32,000 nt of DNA from Flavobacteriaceae bacterium (lineage in GTDB: Bacteria > Bacteroidota > Bacteroidia > Flavobacteriales > Flavobacteriaceae), in NCBI GenBank assembly GCA_965224465.1, contig OZ245049.1, positions 1,170,001 to 1,202,000 on the forward strand. Direction: 5' to 3'. Positions within the stretch are counted from its first letter, which is position 1. The number at the start of each line of letters is the position of its first letter. This document shows positions 8,541-23,520 of the stretch, piece after piece. The notes below the pieces were generated by a model. The model ran no database searches and was not told the origin of the DNA. It was given only the letters and a program-made list of their open reading frames with translations. A program made the translations under genes and the position numbers.

Positions 8541-8889
8541 ATTTAACCGAATACTGTTTTTTTGAGTCATTCAAAATAAAACTGTTTTCACATACTATCC
8601 GGATAGCTGTAAAACTCAGAAGAAGCGGGCTGTTTTGGGCGTTCCCCAAGGGTCGGGCTATCCACTATATCTTTTTTTAAAAGAAAAAAAGGATGCCGCT
8701 GCTATCCCTAACGCAAATCAGGAATTAAATAGGAGGCTTTAGATATTAGTATTGAGATATTAGAAATAAGATAAAACCCAAGACGTAGCACTCAAACATA
8801 TGAATGTTCCAAATTTAAATAGGCTGATTATTTGGAAATCTAAGTCTTTGGAGATGGATGGTTAATCGTTGCGAGCAATAGCAATAAGC
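8541..8889 (-). repeat. Left part of a diverged type II intergenic repeat, interrupted by IS66
   Basis: atttaaccgaatactgttttt..gagtcattcaaaa...gggctgttttgggcg.tccccaagggtcgggctatcc...gctatccctaacgcaaat...tattgagat...catatgaatgt.ccaaatttaaatag parallels 24308-24640 of the type II repeat. It resumes after the IS at 10897. Confidence 0.7.
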
Positions 8890-8968
8890 GTAAGCGTACG
8901 GAGAACTACATCTTGTAAGAAGTTAAAAATAATCTAATTTTTGCATCTAAACAAAAACGAAAATATAA

Positions 8969-9322
8969 ATGTTAGGATTAGGTACAGAACACACGTATTA
9001 TTATCACTTATCTGCAGTTGATATGCGAAAAGGATTTAATGGATTAAGTGGATTAGTTAGTGAGCACATGGAACAAGAGCGAGATAGAAATAGTGTTTAT
9101 GCATTTATCAATAAGCAAAAAAATAAACTAAAACTTCTTCATTGGCGACCTGGAGGATTTGTACTGTATTATAAACGATTGGAACGAGGTATTTTTGAGC
9201 TTCCAAAATACGACATTGAAGATGGATTAGTAGTTTTGAGTTATACCCAAATGGTTATGGTTTTAGACGGAATTAGTATTATAAATACTCAGAAAAACGA
9301 ACGTTATTTAGAGGCTAAATAA
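8969..9322 (+). CDS. tnpB: IS66 family accessory protein TnpB (IS66 Orf2)
   Basis: 117 aa; VDMRKGFNGLSGLV ... LKLLHWRPGGFVLYYKRLERGIFELP is the characteristic IS66 Orf2 signature. Confidence 0.9.
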   Translation: MLGLGTEHTYYYHLSAVDMRKGFNGLSGLVSEHMEQERDRNSVYAFINKQKNKLKLLHWRPGGFVLYYKRLERGIFELPKYDIEDGLVVLSYTQMVMVLDGISIINTQKNERYLEAK

Positions 9323-9365
9323 TTCAATAAAACTGTAGGTTTTACCTGCTATTTAGTCTTGTTTT

Positions 9366-10868
9366 TTGTATATTTATAGTGTGGAAAACAATACAATAGA
9401 CATACAAAAAGAGCTGGTAATTTTAAAGATTGAACTTGAAAAAACAGCTCAAGAACTAGCTGAAATTAAGCAGCAATACGAGCAGCTTAAAAGAATGGTT
9501 TTCGGGTCTAAAAGCGAACGTTTTATCCCTGTTGACACAAATCAATTGTCGCTTTTCGGAAAAATAATAGCTGAGAAAGAAGAGGCATACAAAAAACATA
9601 TTGTAATCTACGAAAGAAAACAAAAGAAGAAAGGAAAGAAAAAACCTGTTCGCTCTTCTATACCTGCGCATTTTCCGCGAGTAGAAGAGATTATAGAGCC
9701 TAAGCACATAGAAGAAGGAGCTGTAAAAATAGGAGAAGAAGTTACAGAACTTTTAGAAATAACGCCTCTTTCCGTTTTTGTAAGACGAATTGTAAGACCT
9801 AAATATGCACTTCCGGAAGAAAAAGGCGTTGTTATAGCAGAATTACCAAGCTTACCGATACCTAAAGGAAATGCATCAGCAAGTTTATTGGCCTTTATAC
9901 TTATTTCAAAATTTGTAGACCATTTACCACTTTACAGATTAATTCAAATTTTTAAACGACAAGATTTAAAAGTAAGTAAATCAACAATTGGAGGATGGGT
10001 ATCTAAAAGTTCGGAGCTTATCGCTCCTTTATACGATACATTTAAGGCTCAGTTTTTAGAAAATGCCAATTATATTCAAGCAGACGAATCTCCTATAAAG
10101 GTTTTAGATAAAGACAAGAAAAAATCAACACACAGAGGGTATATGTGGGTGTATCGAAATCCTGTTAAAAATTTAGTTCTTTTTGAATACAATAAAGGGA
10201 GAGGAAAAGTTGTTCCAGAAGAGTTTTTTAAAGATTTCAATGGGACACTACAGTCCGATGGGTATGCTGCATACCAAAACTTAACAACAAAAGGAGAAAT
10301 TACTCTTTTAGGTTGCATGGCTCATGCTAGGCGGTATTTTGAGAAGGCGCTGGATAATGATCCTAAAAGAGCGGATGTTGTTTTGTTGGAAATTCAAAAG
10401 CTATACAAGATAGAACGTAAAATAAAAGAACAAGAATTAACTATTGAGCAAACTAAAGCATATAGAGAAAAACATGCATCACCTGTTTTAGACGGAATAG
10501 AAATTTATCTTACAAAAGAGCGAAAAAACGTACTGCCTAAAAGTGCCATAGGAAAAGCAATTGCTTATACTCTTAAAATATGGCAAAACCTAAAACTATA
10601 CATCGATGATGGCAGGTTTGAAATAGACAACAATAATATAGAAAATGCCATAAGACCTTTAGCTATTGGCAGAAAAAATTATCTCTTTGCTGGCAGTCAT
10701 GAGTCCGCACAAAACATAGCTCTATTTTATAGCTTTTTTGCTACTTGCAAAAAGAATAACGTAAACCCACATACGTGGCTATGTGATGTCCTTAATAGAT
10801 TACCAGAACATAAGGCTAATAAACTTTCGGAGTTACTGCCTCAAAATTGGAAGCCTGTTGATAAATAA
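9366..10868 (+). CDS. IS66 family DDE transposase (TnpC)
   Basis: 500 aa; coiled-coil N-terminus, then ADESPIKV, MWVY, LQSDGYAAY, CMAHARRYF and IENAIRPLAIGRKNYLFAGS motifs typical of IS66 transposases. The track start is a TTG at 9366; a GTG at 9381 is an alternative. Confidence 0.9.
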   Translation: MYIYSVENNTIDIQKELVILKIELEKTAQELAEIKQQYEQLKRMVFGSKSERFIPVDTNQLSLFGKIIAEKEEAYKKHIVIYERKQKKKGKKKPVRSSIPAHFPRVEEIIEPKHIEEGAVKIGEEVTELLEITPLSVFVRRIVRPKYALPEEKGVVIAELPSLPIPKGNASASLLAFILISKFVDHLPLYRLIQIFKRQDLKVSKSTIGGWVSKSSELIAPLYDTFKAQFLENANYIQADESPIKVLDKDKKKSTHRGYMWVYRNPVKNLVLFEYNKGRGKVVPEEFFKDFNGTLQSDGYAAYQNLTTKGEITLLGCMAHARRYFEKALDNDPKRADVVLLEIQKLYKIERKIKEQELTIEQTKAYREKHASPVLDGIEIYLTKERKNVLPKSAIGKAIAYTLKIWQNLKLYIDDGRFEIDNNNIENAIRPLAIGRKNYLFAGSHESAQNIALFYSFFATCKKNNVNPHTWLCDVLNRLPEHKANKLSELLPQNWKPVDK

Positions 10869-10896
10869 TCAAGGGTGTACTTTACCGTACGCTTAC

Positions 10897-11112: not shown

Positions 11113-11694
11113 TTATATCACGTAATCTAAATTATATTCATCAGGATATATAATCGTTAAATCACGACGGTTAAGCCCGTTCTTTTCAAAAATACAAATT
11201 TGAATAGCTGGTTTATAATCTAGAAATTGAGGTCTTAATAATTCAAATATTAATCTGAATCGATATTTTTGGTACTCTTCTTTATATTCTGAAATAGATT
11301 TTATACCGTATACTCTAATTGCCTCGTAATCAAATCCTATTTTTGTTTTAATAAACTCTAATATCCTAGCTACTGTTGTTTCGGGTGTAATTGTAATTAT
11401 ATTTTGGCCTTTTAAGAATGCAATACTATTACTGAAATCATTCATATGGTCTGTATCTCCAACTAAATCAAAACAGTTACTTGTGTCAAAGTCGCAAATA
11501 GTTTGGCATATAATATACTTTTTTTTATGTCTAACTTCTCCCCACCAATGTGCATTTTCAACAAATGTATCCCAAAAATAAAAACCTTCACCAAGCCAGG
11601 TGTTACCCCAATTACAAGGGAAAGGTGCATTCTTTAAAACATATTCAGGATTACCTTTGTCTTTAAGAGTTTGATATAAGATTTTTGATTTCAA
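11113..11694 (-). CDS. Hypothetical protein, last gene of the three-gene SecB-like cassette (candidate toxin/effector)
   Basis: 193-aa ORF with a TTG start, 6 nt after the stop of the SecB-like gene. It contains the GEGFYFWDT...AHWWGE motif. No domain recognised with confidence. Confidence 0.55.
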   Translation of the reverse strand: MKSKILYQTLKDKGNPEYVLKNAPFPCNWGNTWLGEGFYFWDTFVENAHWWGEVRHKKKYIICQTICDFDTSNCFDLVGDTDHMNDFSNSIAFLKGQNIITITPETTVARILEFIKTKIGFDYEAIRVYGIKSISEYKEEYQKYRFRLIFELLRPQFLDYKPAIQICIFEKNGLNRRDLTIIYPDEYNLDYVI

Positions 11695-11700
11695 ATCTTC

Positions 11701-12108
11701 TTAATTTTGAGTAGTGTTTTCCTTTAAAGGAATTTCTAAAGAAGATAAATTAAGTGTAGGTAATACAATTGGTGGAATGTTTGCTTGTAATGTAACAGTG
11801 CCAATAAATGCTCTTATGTAAGGGAAAATTATTGCAATACTATTTCTGTAAAAGTAAGTTGGGATATCAGAAAAACTAGTGTTTTCTTCGAATTTGAAAG
11901 TTGAATGACATTCTATTTCAACAAAATTTTCTTCTGATTTACCACTTTTAGAAGAGAATATAATAATTAACTTAAATTCAGATTTTTTGTGATTAAATAT
12001 TCCTTTTGGATTAAATGAGATATCTATATCGTTTGATGTTTTTTTTGAAAAATCTATATTAATCTTTTCAAATATATAATTGTCTAAATAGAATGCGGCT
12101 TTATTCAC
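11701..12108 (-). CDS. SecB-like chaperone family protein
   Basis: 135 aa. By eye it aligns along E. coli SecB. F.L.NYIFEKINIDFS matches FQIQRIYTKDISFE. FVEIECHSTFKF matches FLCEVQQGGIFSI. AIIFPYIRAFIGTVTLQANIPPIVLPTLNL matches [30 protein letters not shown]. Confidence 0.6.
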   Translation of the reverse strand: MNKAAFYLDNYIFEKINIDFSKKTSNDIDISFNPKGIFNHKKSEFKLIIIFSSKSGKSEENFVEIECHSTFKFEENTSFSDIPTYFYRNSIAIIFPYIRAFIGTVTLQANIPPIVLPTLNLSSLEIPLKENTTQN

Positions 12109-12124
12109 TTTGATGTTTTATTTG

Positions 12125-12367
12125 TTATGCTAATTTAAATAAAAAATCCGAAGCGAACTTCGGATTTGTGATAATATTATTAAGAGAATTGAATTCCCAG
12201 AATTCATTGTTATTTTCTATCTTATGATGATAAATAGTTTGTTCTATAAATTCATCAATTTTCGAACCTATACTATTGTATTTTTCAGATTCAGCCCAAT
12301 CGCTTATAATTTGTTCTTTCGAATTACTCTGAAAATACAATTTCAAATTTTCTAAAATTGTATTCAT
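12125..12367 (-). CDS. Small hypothetical protein, first gene of the SecB-like cassette (candidate antitoxin)
   Basis: 80-aa ORF ending 16 nt upstream of the SecB-like gene. A TACTTTTG (TAnnTTTG) -7-like box lies on the minus strand at 12404-12411, about 36 nt upstream of its ATG. Confidence 0.5.
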   Translation of the reverse strand: MNTILENLKLYFQSNSKEQIISDWAESEKYNSIGSKIDEFIEQTIYHHKIENNNEFWEFNSLNNIITNPKFASDFLFKLA

Positions 12368-12514
12368 AATTTTTAGTTTTTATATTTTATTACAAATATT
12401 GTGCAAAAGTATCTTAAATTTATTTATAATAAAAATATTATTGATATATAATTCTTTTATTAAAGATAGTGATAATTTAAAGAATATCAAAAGATGTTGC
12501 TGTTTTTTTTAATT

Positions 12515-12985
12515 ACCACCAACACCTCTATATCCACAATAACGAGCAAAACTTGACGTTATTTCCGTAATAGCTACAATAGCGGTTGTAATTATATTTA
12601 TTTTTAAATCCGCTATATACGGGTTCTCCAAGGCATTAATTTCCAGCGGAAAAACACTAAAATTATGGATTAATGATTAATGTTTTCGGTTTGTGAACGG
12701 GCGAAATACGGCATTAAATAAACTGAAAAAACACTCTTTCAAAAAAGAGAGAAATAACATGAAAACATTCTGAAATATGGCGAGTAAAGGACTTAAAACA
12801 AGTGTTTCATATAAAAAAAAAGGATGTAATTACTCCCCAAATGAGTGTTCCTAAAACATTGAAATTACACAGGAGGGTGTTTTAGGAGCTGTTGGTTGTA
12901 ATTCCCCAGCGTTCAGTGCAACAAGACGATAAAATCAGTGGGCCCCCCCGGACCCACGTAATTTTAATCGCTAGGTGTTTTGTGC
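12515..12985 (-). repeat. Degenerate type I intergenic repeat
   Basis: 12515-12640 matches the P end of type I (accaccaacacctctatatccacaataac.agc.aaacttgacgttatttccgtaatagctacaatagcgg...aaatccgctatatacgg). 12760-12900 resembles the type I centre (aacatgaaaa...gacttaaaacaag...acacaaggag..gtttta). The module A end is replaced by other sequence. Confidence 0.6.
12938..12957 (-). terminator. GC-rich hairpin downstream of the PIN-like gene
   Basis: The minus strand reads GTGGGTCC-GGG-GGGCCCAC, an 8-bp stem including one G-T pair, followed by TGATTTTAT. It lies 29 nt past the stop at 12986. It is a striking GC-rich island in AT-rich DNA. Confidence 0.45.
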
Positions 12986-14168
12986 TTAGTTTTTATCATT
13001 TTCATCATCAATATTAAACTTTCCGAAATATTTAAAATATTTATTATTATAAAGTTCTCTATCAATTTTTAAACTCTGAAGTCTTTCCTCTAGACTTTTT
13101 AAATCTATTGATAGATGTATATATTCTTCTTGATTGTTATCTTTATCAAAAGGTTCTTCTTTAATAATATTTTGACGATGTATTAATCTATTAATCTGTT
13201 CTTTAACTAACTGAATTTTATGCTCTAAATATTGTGCTTTATCTCTTGATTTATATCTCTCTTTCTTCTTGAAGAATCTAAGTAATTCTTCCTTTTTTAA
13301 TTCTTCTAATTCCTGAATTTCTGCTCTTTTTATTTCTTTTATTTCTTCAAGAGCTTTTTTATTGCCTTGTTCTTTTAAATGTTCTAGACCATATGATAAA
13401 AATCTTTCAGATGAATACATATGAAAATTAACATTTGCTTCTAATTTTATTTCCTCAATAAGCTCTTGTCTTGGTCCCATATTTCGACCATCTTTGATTT
13501 TCCACCACCAATCAATTTTTCTTTCATCTGTGATTAGAATAATTGGTTTTTTGTCTTTTTTTGCTTTGTCAATAATTTGTTTCCATAATACTAAATCTCC
13601 AAATTTTCTATTACCTTGTTTTGTTTTTTCATCTTCAAAGCCAGGTGGAATCTTTTTTTCAAATCTAGTTTTTCCTTCTAAATATATTTCCTGTAATTGC
13701 TCTTCAGTATATTCTTCTGAAATTTTATTCTTGAAAATTAAAGTTAAATCTTCGAAAATTGAATCTTTTTGTAAAAAATCGCAATATTTTTTGATACTAC
13801 TTTCAACTTCATTATTGACATCTTTAAAAACTTTTTTTAAGGAACTATGTAATTTGTCAGATAAAAAAGGAGGTTTGCTTGTTGATTGTAAGTCGCTTTC
13901 AATTTGACCAATTTTAGATATAAATTCTTTATATGCTTTTTCTTGGTCAGCAATTACTTCGTAGCGATTTCTATTATATTCTAAAGCAGATTGATGTGGT
14001 AACCAAATCTGTTTATTAAATTTTGTTATAAGTTCTAATAACGCTTTTCTTGTGTCATTTGAATATCTATAAAGATTTAAAAGGACATTTGCATCAAAAC
14101 AAATAATTCCATTATTCCAAAGATCTTTAATTACTTTTCTTATAAAATCCAGAAAAAATTTCTTTCAT
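12986..14168 (-). pseudogene. PIN-like (DUF4935-type) domain protein with coiled-coil C-terminus, disrupted by a 1-nt frameshift near the start
   Basis: The ORF track reports only the last 164 aa (12986..13480). The same frame is open up to 14164 with no ATG, GTG or TTG. It reads ..IRKVIKDLWNNGIICFDANVLLNLYRYSNDTRKALLELITKFNKQIWLPHQSALEYNRNRYEVI...PIILITDERKIDWWWKI.., which resembles the PIN-like DUF4935 family. The ATG at 14168-14166 gives MKEIFSGFYKKSN*, one frame off. Removing one base from the T4 run at 14135-14138 (A4 on the coding strand) yields MKEIFSGFYKKVIKDLW..., a continuous 393-aa protein. Confidence 0.75.
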
Positions 14169-15069: not shown

Positions 15070-15477
15070 TTATTCATTTAACATTATCTGTCCAATAGCA
15101 CCGACTATAAAAAATGTAATACAACTTATTACAAATAGAATGAATTGGGCGATATACATACCAAATGACAAAGTCTCACTTAATAAATTAATAACTAAAA
15201 TAATTGAGGAAGGAATCAATCCGAAAATTATTATCAATGATATTATTAATGCAACAAGTTGCCATCTAGTTTTTTTATTTGAATTTGAGATTCCAGATGA
15301 AAACTTCACTACTGATTGTCCAAATAATATTAAGGATATAATTGACCATTCAGTATTATAAAAGATTGCACTTAGGTTGTTTTCATAGCTTCTAACAATT
15401 AATAATATTATAATTGGGAGCAATGTAAATAAGAATTCAGAGGTTAAAATATATTTTATTGTTTTATCTAATTTCAT
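15070..15477 (-). CDS. Small integral membrane protein (about 4 TM helices)
   Basis: 135-aa ORF that is almost entirely hydrophobic segments. Its start lies 3 nt after the stop of the upstream 287-aa gene, so they form a tight operon. Confidence 0.6.
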   Translation of the reverse strand: MKLDKTIKYILTSEFLFTLLPIIILLIVRSYENNLSAIFYNTEWSIISLILFGQSVVKFSSGISNSNKKTRWQLVALIISLIIIFGLIPSSIILVINLLSETLSFGMYIAQFILFVISCITFFIVGAIGQIMLNE

Positions 15478-15479
15478 TC

Positions 15480-16343
15480 TTAATTATTATGAATTACGTT
15501 AATAACTTCAATTATTTCTAATTTGTCAGAAATTAAGTACCCGTTTCTATTGTATTTTGAAGTTTGTCTAACACGTACATTAAGTGAATCTCCAGGAACA
15601 ACAGGAACTTGACCTGAATGAAATTTCTCCAACCACTCTTGGTGCAATATTTTAACAGTTACTGATTTAGTTCCGTGTTTAAAATTCCAAGCAGACTCAC
15701 CTAAAAAGTCAGGTTTTTTGATTAGATAAATCATTTCAGATTCATTTACTATTTCCTTTTCGGTTAAAGCTTCTTCAACAGCTTCAATGTCTATTTTGGG
15801 AGTTCCCGAGCTTATTTCTTTAACTTCTTTGTTATTACTCTTTAACTCAAAAGACTCATTACCGTTGAGTTTGTCGGTAGAATCATTAATTGAATTTATT
15901 GATTTCGCAAGTTTCAATAAATCTGGTTCTGCATAATTAAAAGTTTCTGTTAATTCTTTTTCATTTGCAATTTCTGAGATAGTAGTTTTTAAGTTCTCTA
16001 AATCTTCAACACTTGATTTTTTATCAGCTATGAATTTTAACGTTTCAGCCCTAGATTCTTCAATATATTCTTCAATTTTTTCGATTTCAGGAGCATTGTC
16101 AATTTGTCCATCTTGACTAATAACAATTGCACTATAAAGCTTTCCAATAATAGAACCTTTTTCAATGTCATCTAATATGATTTTAGATTTCACTGAAGTA
16201 TTGACACTTTCCGCAATTAAGTAATCTAAGTCATTGATTCCTTCAATCATCTCAGCAAAAGACCTAAATAACCTACTAGGATTTTCAGTATCTCTTTCGA
16301 AATCAAGTTTTATCTCAAATTTACTGTTAAATTCTTTTTTCAT
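15480..16343 (-). CDS. Hypothetical acidic/coiled-coil protein, partner of the 4-TM protein
   Basis: 287-aa ORF with typical coding composition. The central part is E/K-rich and the C-terminal ~80 aa look globular. No domain recognised. Confidence 0.6.
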   Translation of the reverse strand: MKKEFNSKFEIKLDFERDTENPSRLFRSFAEMIEGINDLDYLIAESVNTSVKSKIILDDIEKGSIIGKLYSAIVISQDGQIDNAPEIEKIEEYIEESRAETLKFIADKKSSVEDLENLKTTISEIANEKELTETFNYAEPDLLKLAKSINSINDSTDKLNGNESFELKSNNKEVKEISSGTPKIDIEAVEEALTEKEIVNESEMIYLIKKPDFLGESAWNFKHGTKSVTVKILHQEWLEKFHSGQVPVVPGDSLNVRVRQTSKYNRNGYLISDKLEIIEVINVIHNN

Positions 16344-16575
16344 TTTCCACTATTGTTCTTTCTCAGGAAGCGTTTTTAAATTATGCACAACGACCCGGCT
16401 AAGAAATCGTAGGGGAGTTTGAAACTCTGCCCTTTCAATTTACCACTTAGCCAAGCCAAATATTTTTATAATTAATTTTTCTTTTTTCGTTATCAAAATT
16501 TTGGTTTGGCGGTTTTTAATCGAAGCTCTGAACTTCCAATTTATCAACAAAACCCCTATGTTTTTTTAGTCATTG

Positions 16576-19038
16576 TTAGGGCTTCGTGTTTTTATTTATT
16601 GGTATAATATCTTCAATTTTGTCTTTTGAACCACCCTCTTTAAACATATCAGTTTCCTTAATCTCAATAATTTTACAATCTTTGGAGAACCAAATATATC
16701 CAAAAAAGTCTACATCAAATTCAATATTATTATCTAATTCTTCAATGTTTTTACCCCCTTTGATATACTCATCTTTAAGCTCTGTATTTGAATTTAGGTC
16801 AGATATTTTACTGTAAATATGAAGGTTTGGATTAATGTTTTCCATTTCACCCCAACGCTCTTGTGTCTTTTTTGGTAAACCGTCTATTTCTGACCAATCC
16901 CGATGTTTTACCATTGGCTTTCCAGTTTTTTCAATCAAAAACAGCGTATTATGCACCATGGAGTGCCCAGATGTGTAGCTATAGATTGGAATAGAATTAA
17001 ATCGATAATCTTCATTTCCAATTGGTTCGGTTATATTAGCATCCTTGAAATCTTTATGATACTTTATATTAATTCCAAAGCTAATTAATAAATAATCATC
17101 AGAGGAAGGATTTAATTGGCTTACGGCATCAAATATTTGTCCACTAGGCACTTCATATTTTTTGAATTTAGGTAATAAGGAAAGCTTAGTTGCGAAATGG
17201 GTATAATACTCACTTTTAATAGCTTGACCTGTAATTGAATCAGCATTTAAATGATGAACACTAGTATTATCAATAAATGCTTCTCTACTTAATAAAAAAC
17301 GAGTTCCTCTAATAACTTGCATGTATTCACTAATGGAGTCTCTATTACTTTTTTTAATATCAATCTCTGAACTAACCCTGTTTATATCATCATATGCTTT
17401 TCTAATAGAAGAAACTGTATTTGATTTTAAAGCCTCTATTTTTTCTTCTGAAAGTTCAGTAGTTTCTAATGTTTCTTGAAACCCATCTTTTATTTTAGCG
17501 GCTAATTTTTCAATATAAACTAACGGAGGTTCGACATTAATATTTTTGCAAAATTGTTTGGTAATTATATTTAAACCAAGTTTTTCTAATAAATCAGAAT
17601 TTGAAAGATGTTTTTCAATTATTTTACTAAATACTTTCAAGTTATCCTGCCATTCTTTTTTTTCACTCTGCTTTTTAGGTATTTGTGGAAGACCATGTAA
17701 TGGATGGTTACCATAATAACCAAAAGTTATATAGAGTCTAAGAAATAATAATCCAAGATATTCGCATATTACAAATTTCACATCTCTTTTATTATTCATA
17801 TTATCAAATCCCAAGTCTTTAAACCAAAAGCGTATAACTATGGAAGTGCTATGGAATCCTATTCCTAAATACGTGAAAAATAACTCAAATATACTTTGGG
17901 GATTTTGAGGTACTAATACAAAGTGAGGTGGTTGTGATTGTGTGTAAAGCCAAGCTTCTTTTAATGTTAAATATTGTTCTTTATGCATAAGGTAAGCACC
18001 AAGAGCAGTTTGTAATTGAATAAAGTACTCTCTATTTTGTGAAAACTTTTTTCGTTTTTCAATACTAACTTTTGTCTCTTTAAAGTTGTCATCATGCTCA
18101 GGATACGGAACCTTTAAATGGAAATCACAATATTGGTGTGAATTTCCCCAAAATTCTAAAACCTTTTCAGTTCTTCCCGATTCAATAACTGCTACAAGGT
18201 TTCTCCAAATAGCATTATAAGATTCTTGATGTAAAAATTGAGGTGCATGCTTCCCATAGTTCTCTGTAAAAAACACCGAGCCTATAAATGATTCAAATCT
18301 TTGGTAATAAAACTCCTCATTGGCTTTTAGGTAGGTAATTACGATATCAAATGTTCCATTATATATTTCAGGAGGGTATTGAACATATTCTTCGTTTTTT
18401 TGGTCTACAAATCTTAAGAAACCAAAAACACGATAGATATATAAATCACGAATATTATTTTCTAGTTTACGGTCTTTATTATTAATTGAATAGATAAAAA
18501 GGTCAATAATAGGGTGCCAGTAGTCAAGTATTTTTTCTTTTATTCCCCTCGAATTTTTTAGTTTTTCTCTTTCTTTAGTGTATTTGTCAAAGGTAAATCT
18601 GTTAGAATATAATTCGAACAAGTCTTGACCATTTTGATATTTTAATAATAGATTTAGATAGGGAAAAAATAGAATTAGTAGTGTTATTACAGAGATAAAA
18701 GCAACGATAAATACTCCTATTGACATTACAAAACAAAGAACAGTTAACCCTACAGATATTCTCAAATTCCAAATAAATAGTTTATGAATTTTTTCTTTCT
18801 TAAACTGATAAATAATGTGAGTGGATTTATATTGCTCATTTAACTTACTTACAGTTTGGATTATTAAAGGATATGCAATACCTAGTATTGCAGGAACAAA
18901 GGCGAGAACAATTTTAAACATTGGATTGTCAATGTATAGCCTTATAATTAAATCTTTGAGGGGTTGAAAAACGGCAACTAAAAGACCATATGATATGGAA
19001 TATATCTCTTTAATTATTTCAATAGTTTCCATATTCAT
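16576..19038 (-). CDS. Large membrane-anchored protein of unknown function
   Basis: 820-aa ORF. The N-terminal ~130 aa contain about 4 hydrophobic helices; the rest is soluble with no recognisable motif. Its stop codon is embedded in GCCCTAAC on the coding strand. Confidence 0.7.
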   Translation of the reverse strand: MNMETIEIIKEIYSISYGLLVAVFQPLKDLIIRLYIDNPMFKIVLAFVPAILGIAYPLIIQTVSKLNEQYKSTHIIYQFKKEKIHKLFIWNLRISVGLTVLCFVMSIGVFIVAFISVITLLILFFPYLNLLLKYQNGQDLFELYSNRFTFDKYTKEREKLKNSRGIKEKILDYWHPIIDLFIYSINNKDRKLENNIRDLYIYRVFGFLRFVDQKNEEYVQYPPEIYNGTFDIVITYLKANEEFYYQRFESFIGSVFFTENYGKHAPQFLHQESYNAIWRNLVAVIESGRTEKVLEFWGNSHQYCDFHLKVPYPEHDDNFKETKVSIEKRKKFSQNREYFIQLQTALGAYLMHKEQYLTLKEAWLYTQSQPPHFVLVPQNPQSIFELFFTYLGIGFHSTSIVIRFWFKDLGFDNMNNKRDVKFVICEYLGLLFLRLYITFGYYGNHPLHGLPQIPKKQSEKKEWQDNLKVFSKIIEKHLSNSDLLEKLGLNIITKQFCKNINVEPPLVYIEKLAAKIKDGFQETLETTELSEEKIEALKSNTVSSIRKAYDDINRVSSEIDIKKSNRDSISEYMQVIRGTRFLLSREAFIDNTSVHHLNADSITGQAIKSEYYTHFATKLSLLPKFKKYEVPSGQIFDAVSQLNPSSDDYLLISFGINIKYHKDFKDANITEPIGNEDYRFNSIPIYSYTSGHSMVHNTLFLIEKTGKPMVKHRDWSEIDGLPKKTQERWGEMENINPNLHIYSKISDLNSNTELKDEYIKGGKNIEELDNNIEFDVDFFGYIWFSKDCKIIEIKETDMFKEGGSKDKIEDIIPINKNTKP

Positions 19039-20402: not shown

Positions 20403-21239
20403 TTATTTTAGTTTTTTGGGATTTTTCAAACTTTTCTTTTCATCACTTTTTAAACGTCTGTCAATTTTACTTATGTCTTCTTCTGGAGATAAATTTTCAG
20501 GTGTAATTCCACGTGAAATTAACGTGTTTCGTACAGATTTATTATTCGTAATATGTTCCCTTGAAATTTGACTTTCAGTTCTCATATTATTCTCTTTTGC
20601 ATTGAAGATTGTAATTTCAGTAGCGAAATCTTTTGCTTTTAAAAGTATGGTAGGCATAAAATCAGCTAATGGCTTATTTTTAATTCCCCATCTATCTTTC
20701 ATTTGTTGAGTTGTCTTCCCAAATAAAGCAGTATCTCCTTTACTCCTGATTAGGGCGAAATTCTTATTGCCTCCAGTTTGTTCAAATATTATTTGAGATA
20801 ATTCTTTTTCAGTAGATTTTAATTTCTCTCTAGCTAAAACTCTTTCGTGCTCAAGCATTTTTTCCTCAATAAGTTCGGCTTTTCTAGTTTGAATAGCAAA
20901 ATAACGTTGTGCAAATGCTATTGTATTTTTTCTAGGGTCTCCGTTTTGAGTTATTAAGTAACAAGCAAATCTTGTCAACATTATATCTTCAATCTCTCTT
21001 TCACTTCCTGAGCCTAGAGTAACCATTTTGTTGACATCAACAAAATGGTCATCTATTTGCTGTTCAGAAACTTCACAAGCAGTTTTAGCTTTGTTAATTA
21101 CTAAGTTAAAGTTTCTCCATTCGTTATAGCCTAATAAATGTTGTAAGTCTCTTGCCATCCAAAATTCAACTCCATCAGATGTTTTATTGGAATGTGATTC
21201 AAAATTTTCGGTAAGGCTATGTATTATAGATGTTTTCAT
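20403..21239 (-). CDS. dinD: DNA damage-inducible protein D (DinD family)
   Basis: 278 aa. By eye, WMARDLQHLLGYNEWRNFNLVINKAKTACEVSEQQIDDHF...IMLTRFACYLITQNGDPRKNTIAFAQRYFAIQTRKAEL aligns closely with E. coli DinD (WSARQLGKLLGYSEYRHF...[36 protein letters not shown]). Confidence 0.8.
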   Translation of the reverse strand: MKTSIIHSLTENFESHSNKTSDGVEFWMARDLQHLLGYNEWRNFNLVINKAKTACEVSEQQIDDHFVDVNKMVTLGSGSEREIEDIMLTRFACYLITQNGDPRKNTIAFAQRYFAIQTRKAELIEEKMLEHERVLAREKLKSTEKELSQIIFEQTGGNKNFALIRSKGDTALFGKTTQQMKDRWGIKNKPLADFMPTILLKAKDFATEITIFNAKENNMRTESQISREHITNNKSVRNTLISRGITPENLSPEEDISKIDRRLKSDEKKSLKNPKKLK

Positions 21240-22530: not shown

Positions 22531-23520
22531 TAGGGTTACCTATTTAAATCTCACTAATATTTTGTTTTTCTGAAAGGATTTTTTACTTTTAGAAAAAGAA
22601 AGCTATGAAAATATTAAAAGAATTATCTCGTAAAGAATTTCACACTAAGTTTGGAGAAGAGAGTTTATGTTTATCTTTTTTATCATCTGTAAAATGGGAA
22701 GAAGGTTTTTCCTGTTTTAAATGTAAAAACACAAAGTTTTTAAAAGGAAAAAGAGCGTATAATAGACGTTGTACAAAATGCGGATATGATGAGTCTCCAA
22801 CTGCGAACACTCTATTTCATAAAGTTAAATTTGGTATTGTAGAAGCCTTTGAAATGACTTATGATATAGTTACCAGTAAGAAAGGAGCGAATAGTATTTG
22901 GTTAGCAGAAAGGCACGGTGTTAAACAGATGACAGCTTGGTTGTTTAGAAGAAAAGTACAAGAAGCAATGAAAAGTAGTGAGAAATATCCTTTAGAAAAA
23001 GAAGTTCATGTAGACGAGTTTGAAATAGGTACACCAAAAAAAGGAGAGCAAGGACGTAGTAAATCAGCTACTAAAATTAGAGTTGTAATTGCCATTGAAA
23101 ATAGAAATGGTAAACCAGGCAGAGCATACGCAAAGGTGATAGAAGATTATAGTTGCAAATCATTAAAACCAATATTTGAGAAACATATAAAGTTTGATGC
23201 CAATATAGTTACAGATGGCTGGTCAGGATATAAACCTTTAAAAAAGAACTTCCCAAATTTAACACAAATATTATCTAATAATGGTGAGAATTTTAAGATG
23301 CTACATTTTCAGATAAGAAACTTTAAAAATTGGTTAAGAGGCGTTCATTCGTATTGTGAGAAAGAGTATATAAATCAATACATTCAAGAGTATTTCTATC
23401 GATTTAATCGACTCAATTTTAGAGAAAACATCTTAGAAAACCTACTAAAAAGAATGTGTAAAGAAAAACCAATAACCTATAAATCAATCAAATATATTGC
23501 GACTTAAGAGGGTAACCCTA
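22531..23520 (+). mobile_element. IS1595-family insertion sequence
   Basis: Inverted ends TAGGGTTACC (22531-22540) and GGTAACCCTA (23511-23520). It is flanked by a perfect 8-bp duplication TCAAATTT (22523-22530 and 23521-23528). It carries a single transposase ORF. Confidence 0.85.
22605..23507 (+). CDS. IS1595 family transposase (N-terminal zinc ribbon + DDE domain)
   Basis: 300 aa. CFKC...CTKCG zinc-ribbon pairs, then VHVDEFEIG, VTDGWSGY and a C-terminal YIQEYFYRFNR region typical of ISXO2-like/IS1595 transposases. Confidence 0.85.
   Translation: MKILKELSRKEFHTKFGEESLCLSFLSSVKWEEGFSCFKCKNTKFLKGKRAYNRRCTKCGYDESPTANTLFHKVKFGIVEAFEMTYDIVTSKKGANSIWLAERHGVKQMTAWLFRRKVQEAMKSSEKYPLEKEVHVDEFEIGTPKKGEQGRSKSATKIRVVIAIENRNGKPGRAYAKVIEDYSCKSLKPIFEKHIKFDANIVTDGWSGYKPLKKNFPNLTQILSNNGENFKMLHFQIRNFKNWLRGVHSYCEKEYINQYIQEYFYRFNRLNFRENILENLLKRMCKEKPITYKSIKYIAT

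Follow-up and report, generated by a model that had tools for sequence, protein, structure and literature searches.

CmdTAC, the present name of PD-T4-9, comprises a toxin (CmdT), an antitoxin (CmdA) and a SecB-like chaperone (CmdC), encoded in the order toxin-antitoxin-chaperone (T-A-C). In E. coli, CmdC protects CmdA from ClpXP and newly made T4 capsid protein titrates the chaperone; CmdA is then degraded, and the freed CmdT ADP-ribosylates adenine N6 at GA in single-stranded mRNA and translation is arrested (PMC11618068, PMC9519451, bioRxiv 10.1101/2024.02.24.581848). The gene order has been treated as a fixed property of toxin-antitoxin-chaperone (TAC) systems: Sala et al. reported the antitoxin downstream of the toxin in all TACs then known, besides listing 'toxin-less' antitoxin-chaperone pairs, and the CmdTAC census of Vassallo 2022 required a toxin, then a second open reading frame (ORF), then a SecB-like chaperone. 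Here, we describe a three-gene cassette on the minus strand of a 32,000-nt stretch of the Flavobacteriaceae bacterium contig OZ245049.1 (assembly GCA_965224465.1, positions 1,170,001 to 1,202,000), which we call the window and whose first letter is position 1. This cassette is an intact CmdTAC-family (PADLOC PD-T4-9) module and as such belongs to a kind already known. It is distinct from known CmdTAC in four respects, namely a rotated gene order, a Q-Y-Q triad, a short divergent antitoxin and a covarying terminator-like hairpin inside the antitoxin gene. With a probability of roughly 0.8, it represents a Bacteroidota clade of CmdTAC that is circularly permuted to cmdA-like, cmdC, cmdT.

In the direction of transcription, the cassette consists of a cmdA-like antitoxin gene of 80 aa (12125..12367, ATG start, an ORF call), a cmdC gene of 135 aa (11701..12108, GTG start), recognised by PADLOC PD-T4-9_C, Pfam SecB and a family profile, and a cmdT gene of 193 aa (11113..11694, TTG start), recognised by PADLOC PD-T4-9_A and an AlphaFold2 model. 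The gaps between them are 16 and 6 nt, and the genes annotated on the 5.24-Mb NCBI/ENA contig have identical starts for all three proteins. A first-pass annotation, made from the sequence alone, had placed the three ORFs and both gaps at exactly these coordinates, and the strings that it quoted (GEGFYFWDT, AHWWGE and FPY.R) are all present in the translations. It had proposed a TAC module around a stand-alone SecB-like chaperone in an accessory region, with the chaperone unusually in the middle. The PADLOC PD-T4-9 matches and the conservation of the trio bear out this proposal, the order being antitoxin-chaperone-toxin (A-C-T) here against the canonical T-A-C. It had also taken the two partners for apparently novel, and in this it was mistaken: the 193-aa protein belongs to the CmdT / PD-T4-9_A family of ADP-ribosyltransferases (ARTs), described between 2022 and 2024, and the 80-aa protein occupies the place of CmdA, of which it is a probable remote homologue.

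The closest characterised counterpart, the CmdTAC of E. coli ECOR22 / O112ab:H26 (PD-T4-9; Vassallo 2022 and 2024, Mets 2024), has the same three components in a tight operon within mobile or accessory DNA. Common to both are a compact ART of ~190 aa that carries the Tyr motif G-F-Y-F-W and has Gln third in the triad, a SecB-like chaperone of ~135 aa, and a small antitoxin whose N-terminal helices are followed by a disordered tail. The cassette differs in its A-C-T instead of T-A-C order, in a Gln that stands for the triad His, in its antitoxin (80 aa against 121, unrecognised by PADLOC B, and ending in -KLA, not -LAA), in the intragenic terminator-like hairpin and in a host phylum that does not rely on Shine-Dalgarno-led initiation. 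A more distant likeness is that to HigB-HigA-SecB(TA) of M. tuberculosis (Rv1955-1957), where a SecB-like chaperone is likewise dedicated to a labile antitoxin. The mycobacterial antitoxin ends in Val-Ala (aliphatic + Ala), a ClpXP degron, and that of the window in Leu-Ala. Unlike the cassette, the M. tuberculosis TAC has an unrelated toxin (a RelE-like RNase), an equally unrelated helix-turn-helix antitoxin and the T-A-C order, and its chaperone addiction (ChAD) has been shown experimentally.

Of the PADLOC PD-T4-9_A models, PDLC04068 gives a full-length match to the toxin (E 8.4e-82) and PDLC04069 a cross-hit (E 1.9e-15); in a P2-like Vibrio phage locus, whose genes are labelled PD-T4-9 A/B/C, toxin and chaperone match the same two model pairs reciprocally. 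Its relatives in the databases number 161, nearly all of them from Bacteroidota and none with a functional name, and the 22 residues that are invariant in an alignment of 41 toxins are all intact in the window's protein. AlphaFold2 gives a confident model (predicted local distance difference test, pLDDT, 92.1; predicted template-modelling score, pTM, 0.86), which folds as one compact domain of ~190 aa and lacks any additional domain for delivery. When this model was compared with viral models by Foldseek, phage polyvalent-protein ART domains came at the top (E 3.5e-4, probability 1.0), with further matches to 'PolyVal ADP-ribosyltransferase', Tpt1 and PARPs. Against the PDB, the best matches were again all ARTs: PARP1 (probability 0.80), diphtheria toxin and PARP4 catalytic domains. 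Sub-threshold matches of the toxin to OTU1_UBXL and other Pfam/NCBIfam families were rejected as chance, because they are far below cut-off and mutually unrelated.

Proteobacterial T-A-C loci were found by tblastn on a P2-like Vibrio phage (10N.286.54.F9_PE001, PQ189358), on a Psychrobacter plasmid (pA39BP1) and on an Acinetobacter plasmid (pAS74-4); their toxins are 27-35% identical to that of the window and their chaperones are homologous. The published CmdT triad is H-Y-[E/D/Q], and Y41 is experimentally essential in E. coli CmdT. Alignment with the proteobacterial toxins places the putative triad of the window's protein at Q8 - Y39 - Q165. Y39 and Q165 are invariant in 82 toxins, proteobacterial ones included, and the first position of the proteobacterial T-A-C toxins is Gln in Psychrobacter and His in Vibrio and Acinetobacter. 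Judged by this alignment, the Bacteroidota toxins keep the predicted equivalents of the essential Tyr and of the allowed Gln, and carry a conserved Gln for the published His. The motif G-[FY]-Y-F-W-D of these toxins resembles the Tyr motif of PARPs and diphtheria toxin.

How is the trio arranged elsewhere? When one genome per species was scanned, relatives of the toxin were found in 270 genomes, and the best 80 loci were analysed. The order antitoxin-chaperone-toxin occurs in 66 of them and the order toxin-antitoxin-chaperone in nine, while the remaining five are cut by contig ends or degraded. In the 66 A-C-T loci the median gap is 5 nt between antitoxin and chaperone and 7 nt between chaperone and toxin. 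The first-pass annotation had named lack of conservation of the trio as a finding that would speak against it; the same unit recurs in these 66 loci, and in Tenacibaculum and in a Salinivirgaceae metagenome-assembled genome (MAG) the trio stands as a unit with other flanking genes. The T-A-C relatives within Bacteroidota (e.g. L064, L069 and L083) have the same three families and the same intragenic hairpin just before the chaperone gene and, unlike the cassette, the canonical order. In a neighbour-joining tree of toxins, which has no support values and gives no direction for the change of gene order, the T-A-C Bacteroidota loci, nine in all, cluster in a single clade surrounded by A-C-T loci; the outgroup is formed by the proteobacterial T-A-C toxins. 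This topology implies one or two rearrangements. Because the antitoxin-chaperone pair is adjacent in both orders, the change amounts to a rotation, that is, a circular permutation of the operon. No description of the order antitoxin-chaperone-toxin was found in the limited collection of literature that was searched.

The relatives of the cassette are patchily distributed, with copies on IMG/VR viral contigs. One IMG/VR contig (L098:2205-3491) carries a distant toxin relative (50.7 bits) with T-A-C spacing and a 244-nt gap before the chaperone gene, and both gene orders therefore occur on predicted viral DNA. At L011:2144-3142 and L086:2558-3679, antitoxin and chaperone are intact and the toxin ORF is truncated or not callable; both have the appearance of copies whose toxin has decayed, similar to the 'toxin-less AC' class in the literature. 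Toxin relatives from MAGs labelled 'Candidatus Saccharibacteria' (L069) and 'Clostridia' (L075) lie inside otherwise Bacteroidota-only clades, a placement that points either to binning contamination or to horizontal transfer.

The chaperone matches PADLOC PD-T4-9_C over its full length (PDLC04072, E 3.1e-59) and PDLC04071 at E 2.7e-14. Pfam SecB aligns with residues 23-123 at E 2.8e-5, its 24.5 bits being just below the 26-bit gathering score. Single-sequence phmmer searches of the chaperone and of the toxin against PDB sequences returned nothing useful, and SecB was reached by a family profile only: the profile of 45 chaperone-family sequences matches the SecB structures of E. coli (1QYN, E 1.8e-4) and H. 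influenzae (1FX3, E 8.7e-4), and these matches span positions 3-126 of its 135. These matches show that the SecB resemblance pointed out in the first-pass annotation is no coincidence, and they go against the outcome that would have refuted it, a protein without SecB fold in profile searches. In the NCBIfam SecB equivalogs the protein scores 13-22 bits, for cut-offs of 103-223, and does not reach the thresholds of housekeeping SecB. Since the profile matches SecB structures and the equivalog cut-offs are far from met, the chaperone is assigned by sequence profile to the SecB family and not to housekeeping SecB. On E. coli SecB the alignment extends no further than residue 138 of 153, which is before the C-terminal SecA-binding tail.

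That the 135-aa gene should be a housekeeping SecB standing by chance beside two unrelated small genes is most improbable. This explanation can appeal to the name 'preprotein translocase subunit SecB' that the Joint Genome Institute annotation gives to some members of the chaperone cluster, but the three-gene unit is conserved in 75 of the 80 related loci with gaps of a few nucleotides, and the locus belongs to accessory DNA and has copies on viral contigs. In addition, the literature describes SecB as mainly proteobacterial, with the SecB-like genes of other groups associated with toxin-antitoxin (TA) systems and with Bacteroidetes contributing 9 of 3813 catalogued SecBs. This agrees with the remark in the first-pass annotation that canonical SecB is generally not part of Bacteroidota secretion.

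The 80-aa antitoxin has only 15 close relatives in the databases; the original CmdTAC authors called the antitoxin 'widely variable'. From the small ORFs that precede the chaperone in related loci, a profile was built; in each of the nine T-A-C Bacteroidota loci it picks up the ORF that separates toxin and chaperone (E 4e-7 to 1.6e-15), and therefore the 80-aa protein is the same component in both gene orders. An AlphaFold2 model from a shallow alignment of 13 sequences predicts helices at residues 4-14 and 17-28 (pLDDT 81-93) and at 33-51, followed by a Phe/Trp-rich tail (57-80) in which residues 57-61 and 66-80 are below pLDDT 50. With its N-terminal helices and low-confidence tail, the model agrees with CmdA as published, in which a pair of N-terminal helices is followed by a disordered tail. 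Antitoxins of the cassette's family and those of Vibrio type also have the pattern L..L...T.E....GP..[DE]F[LI]E in common, and the Vibrio phage antitoxin, of 87 aa, is close in size. The shared pattern suggests that the 80-aa protein is a remote homologue of the E. coli/Vibrio-type CmdA. At its C-terminus it reads ...NPKFASDFLFKLA, the last residues being -KLA, and E. coli CmdA ends in LAA or AA. A C-terminal Ala or -LA degron is ruled out as a family-wide feature, because only 11 of 77 Bacteroidota antitoxins end in Ala. Matches to Tdi1_C, Sif, DUF2972, TraH and SifA were discarded as chance, all of them far below threshold and mutually unrelated.

One of these matches bears on another arrangement of roles, in which the 193-aa ART would serve as an effector that is secreted or depends on contact, the 80-aa protein would confer immunity to it and the SecB-like protein would be a chaperone for export. 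The 80-aa protein does show a Pfam match to the C-terminal domain of the type VI secretion immunity protein Tdi1, and SecB is classically an export chaperone. Yet that match (E 0.014, 15.7 bits against 27.4) falls well short of the cut-off and stands beside others that are just as weak and have nothing to do with it, the toxin is a single domain of ~190 aa without a delivery domain in the model and with full-length homology to cytoplasmic CmdT, and the chaperone reaches 22 bits of the 143 that the housekeeping SecB equivalog cut-off demands, its alignment to E. coli SecB stopping at residue 138 of 153. We regard this arrangement as highly improbable.

The most unexpected element of the cassette lies in the last codons of the antitoxin gene, where a terminator scan, folding and covariation identify a terminator-like RNA element (12134..12167, minus strand). 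It consists of a perfect 10-bp stem (AAATCCGAAG/CTTCGGATTT) with a UUCG loop, followed by a U-rich tract, and the stop codon (12127..12125) begins 16 nt past the end of the stem. The surrounding 106 nt fold at z -2.7, and the hairpin is unique in the window (1 match for 0.01 expected). About 75 of 77 homologous Bacteroidota loci keep it, in both gene orders, as do cassette copies on viral contigs, and across the homologous loci its codons read N-P-K-F-x-S-[DG]-F-F. The stem sequences, in turn, vary widely between loci: CCGAAG/CTTCGG and CCAGAG/CTCTGG occur, and also CCCGGAAT/ATTCCGGG, GACTCCGAA/TTCGGAGTC and GGTTCGAAT/ATTCGAACC. For covariation, 39-nt segments were anchored on the Pro codon of the protein alignment, aligned with MAFFT and their pairs counted, a procedure that avoids circularity. 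Standard pairs fill 95.6% of the cells, against 85.4 +/- 0.7% in shuffles (0/500 reach the observed value); double changes occur in 70 cells, against 20 +/- 4 in shuffles (again 0/500); and seven of the nine stem pairs are changed on both sides, a number that 3/500 shuffles reach. As a control, sliding the 3' partner by 1-3 columns leaves 21-61% of the cells paired. The clearest pair joins the often synonymous third position of the Asn/Ser codon with the second position of the Asp/Gly codon; it is C-G in 40 sequences and U-A in 28, with no mismatch. Because selection at the protein level cannot yield such coupling, the C-terminal motif of the antitoxin is at least partly the translated hairpin and U-tract. 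In the limited literature searched, we found no report of a covarying, phylum-wide hairpin embedded in a TA antitoxin ORF.

In the Vibrio, Psychrobacter and Acinetobacter loci, which are also unlike the cassette in their T-A-C order, no hairpin with a U-tract was found at the 3' end of the antitoxin gene, and the antitoxins end in -FAA, -KVA and -FAA, respectively. Of the sampled Bacteroidota antitoxins, one alone, from a MAG of Candidatus Enterocola sp. (L084:1660-1890), has no hairpin either, and it ends in ...NSMAA, like the proteobacterial ssrA-type ends; as a single case, it is compatible with a trade-off of hairpin against hard-coded degron. Where the hairpin is present, the stop codon always lies past the stem, by 5-75 nt, and the end of the ORF beyond the U-tract is not conserved.

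Several observations weigh against reading the cassette as a CmdTAC module. As for the antitoxin, its hhalign alignment to Vibrio-type CmdA (PD-T4-9_B) covers 40 in-register N-terminal columns and is suggestive but not conclusive, with a probability of 57% (P 1e-4). PDLC04070, the one B model in PADLOC, which recognises the Vibrio-type CmdA family as its sole type, matches neither the antitoxin of the window nor any Bacteroidota or Moraxellaceae one, and at the near-invariant Pro35 the window's protein has Ser. Nor is its conserved tail usable as a chaperone-addiction motif: the conservation of NPKF.S[DG]FF is confounded as evidence for ChAD because the same codons form the conserved hairpin and U-tract, and selection on the RNA, as judged from the covariation, would explain much of it. 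As for the toxin, Foldseek aligns it only weakly with solved ARTs (the best at E 0.039 and TM ~0.38, none below 1e-3), and the first triad position, Q8, is Gln in 78 of 79 Bacteroidota toxins, the published His being absent. The A-C-T order is not the toxin-ORF-chaperone order by which the census searched, and it departs from the general TAC order too, with the antitoxin gene first and the toxin gene last. Finally, we infer the toxicity, ADP-ribosylation, chaperone dependence and phage defence of the cassette from homology to the E. coli system.

Some of the same features could indicate a decaying or inactive remnant, disabled by the His-to-Gln change, by Pro35Ser or by the neighbouring insertion sequence (IS) of the IS66 family, which ends 216 bp downstream of the toxin stop codon. 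We consider this quite improbable. Q8 is a clade feature and not a lesion, because it is conserved in 78 of 79 Bacteroidota toxins and in the Psychrobacter plasmid T-A-C system; Ser35 is also present in the family member P0010; the inverted repeats of the IS lie outside the cassette; and the three ORFs are full length, with 22 of 22 invariant toxin residues in place.

If the cassette works as a CmdTAC module, homology to the E. coli system suggests that the 193-aa ART would stay inactive as long as the 80-aa antitoxin and a SecB-like tetramer are bound to it (T:A:C4). On infection, a newly made phage structural protein would compete for the chaperone. The unshielded antitoxin would then be degraded, and the free toxin would ADP-ribosylate single-stranded mRNA and stop translation, resulting in abortive infection. 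The anatomy of the operon adds further predictions. With antitoxin and chaperone genes placed first, the neutralising partners would be made before the toxin. The intragenic hairpin and U-tract is probably a leaky terminator, at which a fraction of the transcripts would end after the antitoxin, and such leaky termination would provide more antitoxin message than chaperone-toxin message.

The same components could do another job, as a selfish addiction module or a stress-responsive TAC that stabilises the island or a prophage and has no role in phage defence. TAC systems were indeed first described as stress-responsive modules, and the cassette adjoins IS elements in a low-GC island and is patchily distributed. 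Against this, the homologous systems of E. coli protect both native and heterologous hosts from T-even phages, relatives are found in the accessory locus of a P2-like phage and on viral contigs, as is usual for defence cargo, and PADLOC candidate defence genes are among the neighbours in the window. A purely non-defensive role is thus unlikely, and addiction and defence are not mutually exclusive.

A further proposal concerns the lability of the antitoxin. Intra-operon attenuator terminators are a familiar device, and proteins made from truncated mRNAs, LacI for example, are subject to SsrA tagging. The cassette resembles these cases in having a hairpin and U-tract inside the transcription unit and upstream of the stop codon, a likeness of sequence arrangement only. 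Because the stop codon lies past the stem, transcripts that ended at the U-tract would have no stop codon in most loci. One could then imagine that in Bacteroidota CmdTAC the intragenic terminator gives rise to non-stop transcripts, that the antitoxin made from them is SsrA-tagged by transfer-messenger RNA (tmRNA) and that ClpXP degrades it unless the chaperone shields it, with no hard-coded LAA degron. The idea is doubtful. Circumstantially, it agrees with the hairpin-less loci (the three proteobacterial ones and L084), whose antitoxins end in -AA or -VA, and with a stop codon that always follows the stem by 5-75 nt while the ORF end after the U-tract is unconstrained. Under this proposal, the hairpin would also set the ratio of antitoxin to chaperone-toxin message and could tie the expression of chaperone and toxin to the distance between ribosome and RNA polymerase. 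A literature search for Bacteroidota tmRNA tag sequences returned E. coli ssrA papers only.

Why would such a widespread arrangement have gone uncounted? Because the census required the T-A-C order, a phylum-wide clade with the rotated order, with relatives in 270 species-level genomes, would have been missed or undercounted. The TAC architecture is not bound to the T-A-C order, which was said to hold for all TACs and by which CmdTAC was searched for. In some of the antitoxin-chaperone pairs published as 'toxin-less', the toxin may just lie downstream. A second implication of the clade is for the way in which CmdT would block translation. Bacteroidota mRNAs are naturally without Shine-Dalgarno sequences (PMC6847099, PMC7797042), and a CmdT clade that thrives without them argues for a translation block independent of GA within Shine-Dalgarno sites. 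Since modification of GA in the Shine-Dalgarno sequence is one option left open for E. coli, the Bacteroidota clade offers a natural test system. The hairpin in the antitoxin ORF, for its part, is a concrete regulatory feature open to mutational testing, and it advises caution: conserved antitoxin tails should not be taken as peptide motifs before a check at the RNA level.

On its 5' side, the cassette is preceded by a non-coding AT-rich region (12368..12937) with no minus-strand ORF of at least 50 aa. Beyond it, a consensus scan located an intrinsic-terminator-like hairpin on the minus strand (GTGGGTCCGGGGGGGCCCAC, then a T-run; 12938..12957), just downstream of a 164-aa ORF (12986..13480). 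A putative terminator by its sequence and position, it would close the upstream gene and set the 5' limit of the cassette transcription unit. The cassette promoter is presumed to lie within 12368..12937; a sigma-70 scan upstream of the cassette was uninformative (14 sites for 12.8 expected), its model being ill-suited to Bacteroidota.

The surroundings of the cassette look like an accessory or defence island. G+C is low from roughly 11 to 29 kb (25-33%), against 36-41% in the housekeeping genes on the left (6-8.5 kb); the region of the cassette itself has 25-30%. To the left of the cassette stand SbcD-like, alkaline-phosphatase and HrpB-like genes, and then a Flavo-1 RNA motif and the IS66-family element. 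The Flavo-1 motif (8647-8719, minus strand; Rfam 56.1 bits for a gathering score of 42, E 8.5e-10) sits between the HrpB-like helicase gene and the IS66 element and is consistent with an origin in Flavobacteriia. The IS66 element (8890-10896) is bounded by 21-nt inverted repeats that start with GTAAGCGTACGG (8890-8910 and 10876-10896); its ORFs are only a TnpB-like one (8969-9322) and a DDE transposase (9366-10868), with no space for the IS66 orf1.

To the right of the cassette lie low-GC ORFs without an assigned function, a LAPAL-family / PDC-S42-like protein, a Bro-N / PDC-S13 candidate and an IS1595 transposase. The LAPAL-family protein belongs to a minus-strand run of three genes (15070-19038) that encode a hydrophobic protein of 135 aa, a LAPAL-motif protein of 287 aa and an 820-aa protein without family match. 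The 287-aa protein matches the NCBIfam LAPAL-motif 'putative phage structural protein' at E 3.3e-25 and has a weak match to the PADLOC candidate PDC-S42 (E 4.4e-8); the run could be a second defence or prophage-remnant module. The Bro-N domain protein, of 278 aa (20403-21239, minus strand), matches the PADLOC candidate PDC-S13 over its full length (E 2.6e-115) and also a type I specificity-subunit model (E 1e-48). Further right, the transposase of the IS1595 family (ISXO2-like; 22605-23507, plus strand) represents a second mobile element in the low-GC stretch.

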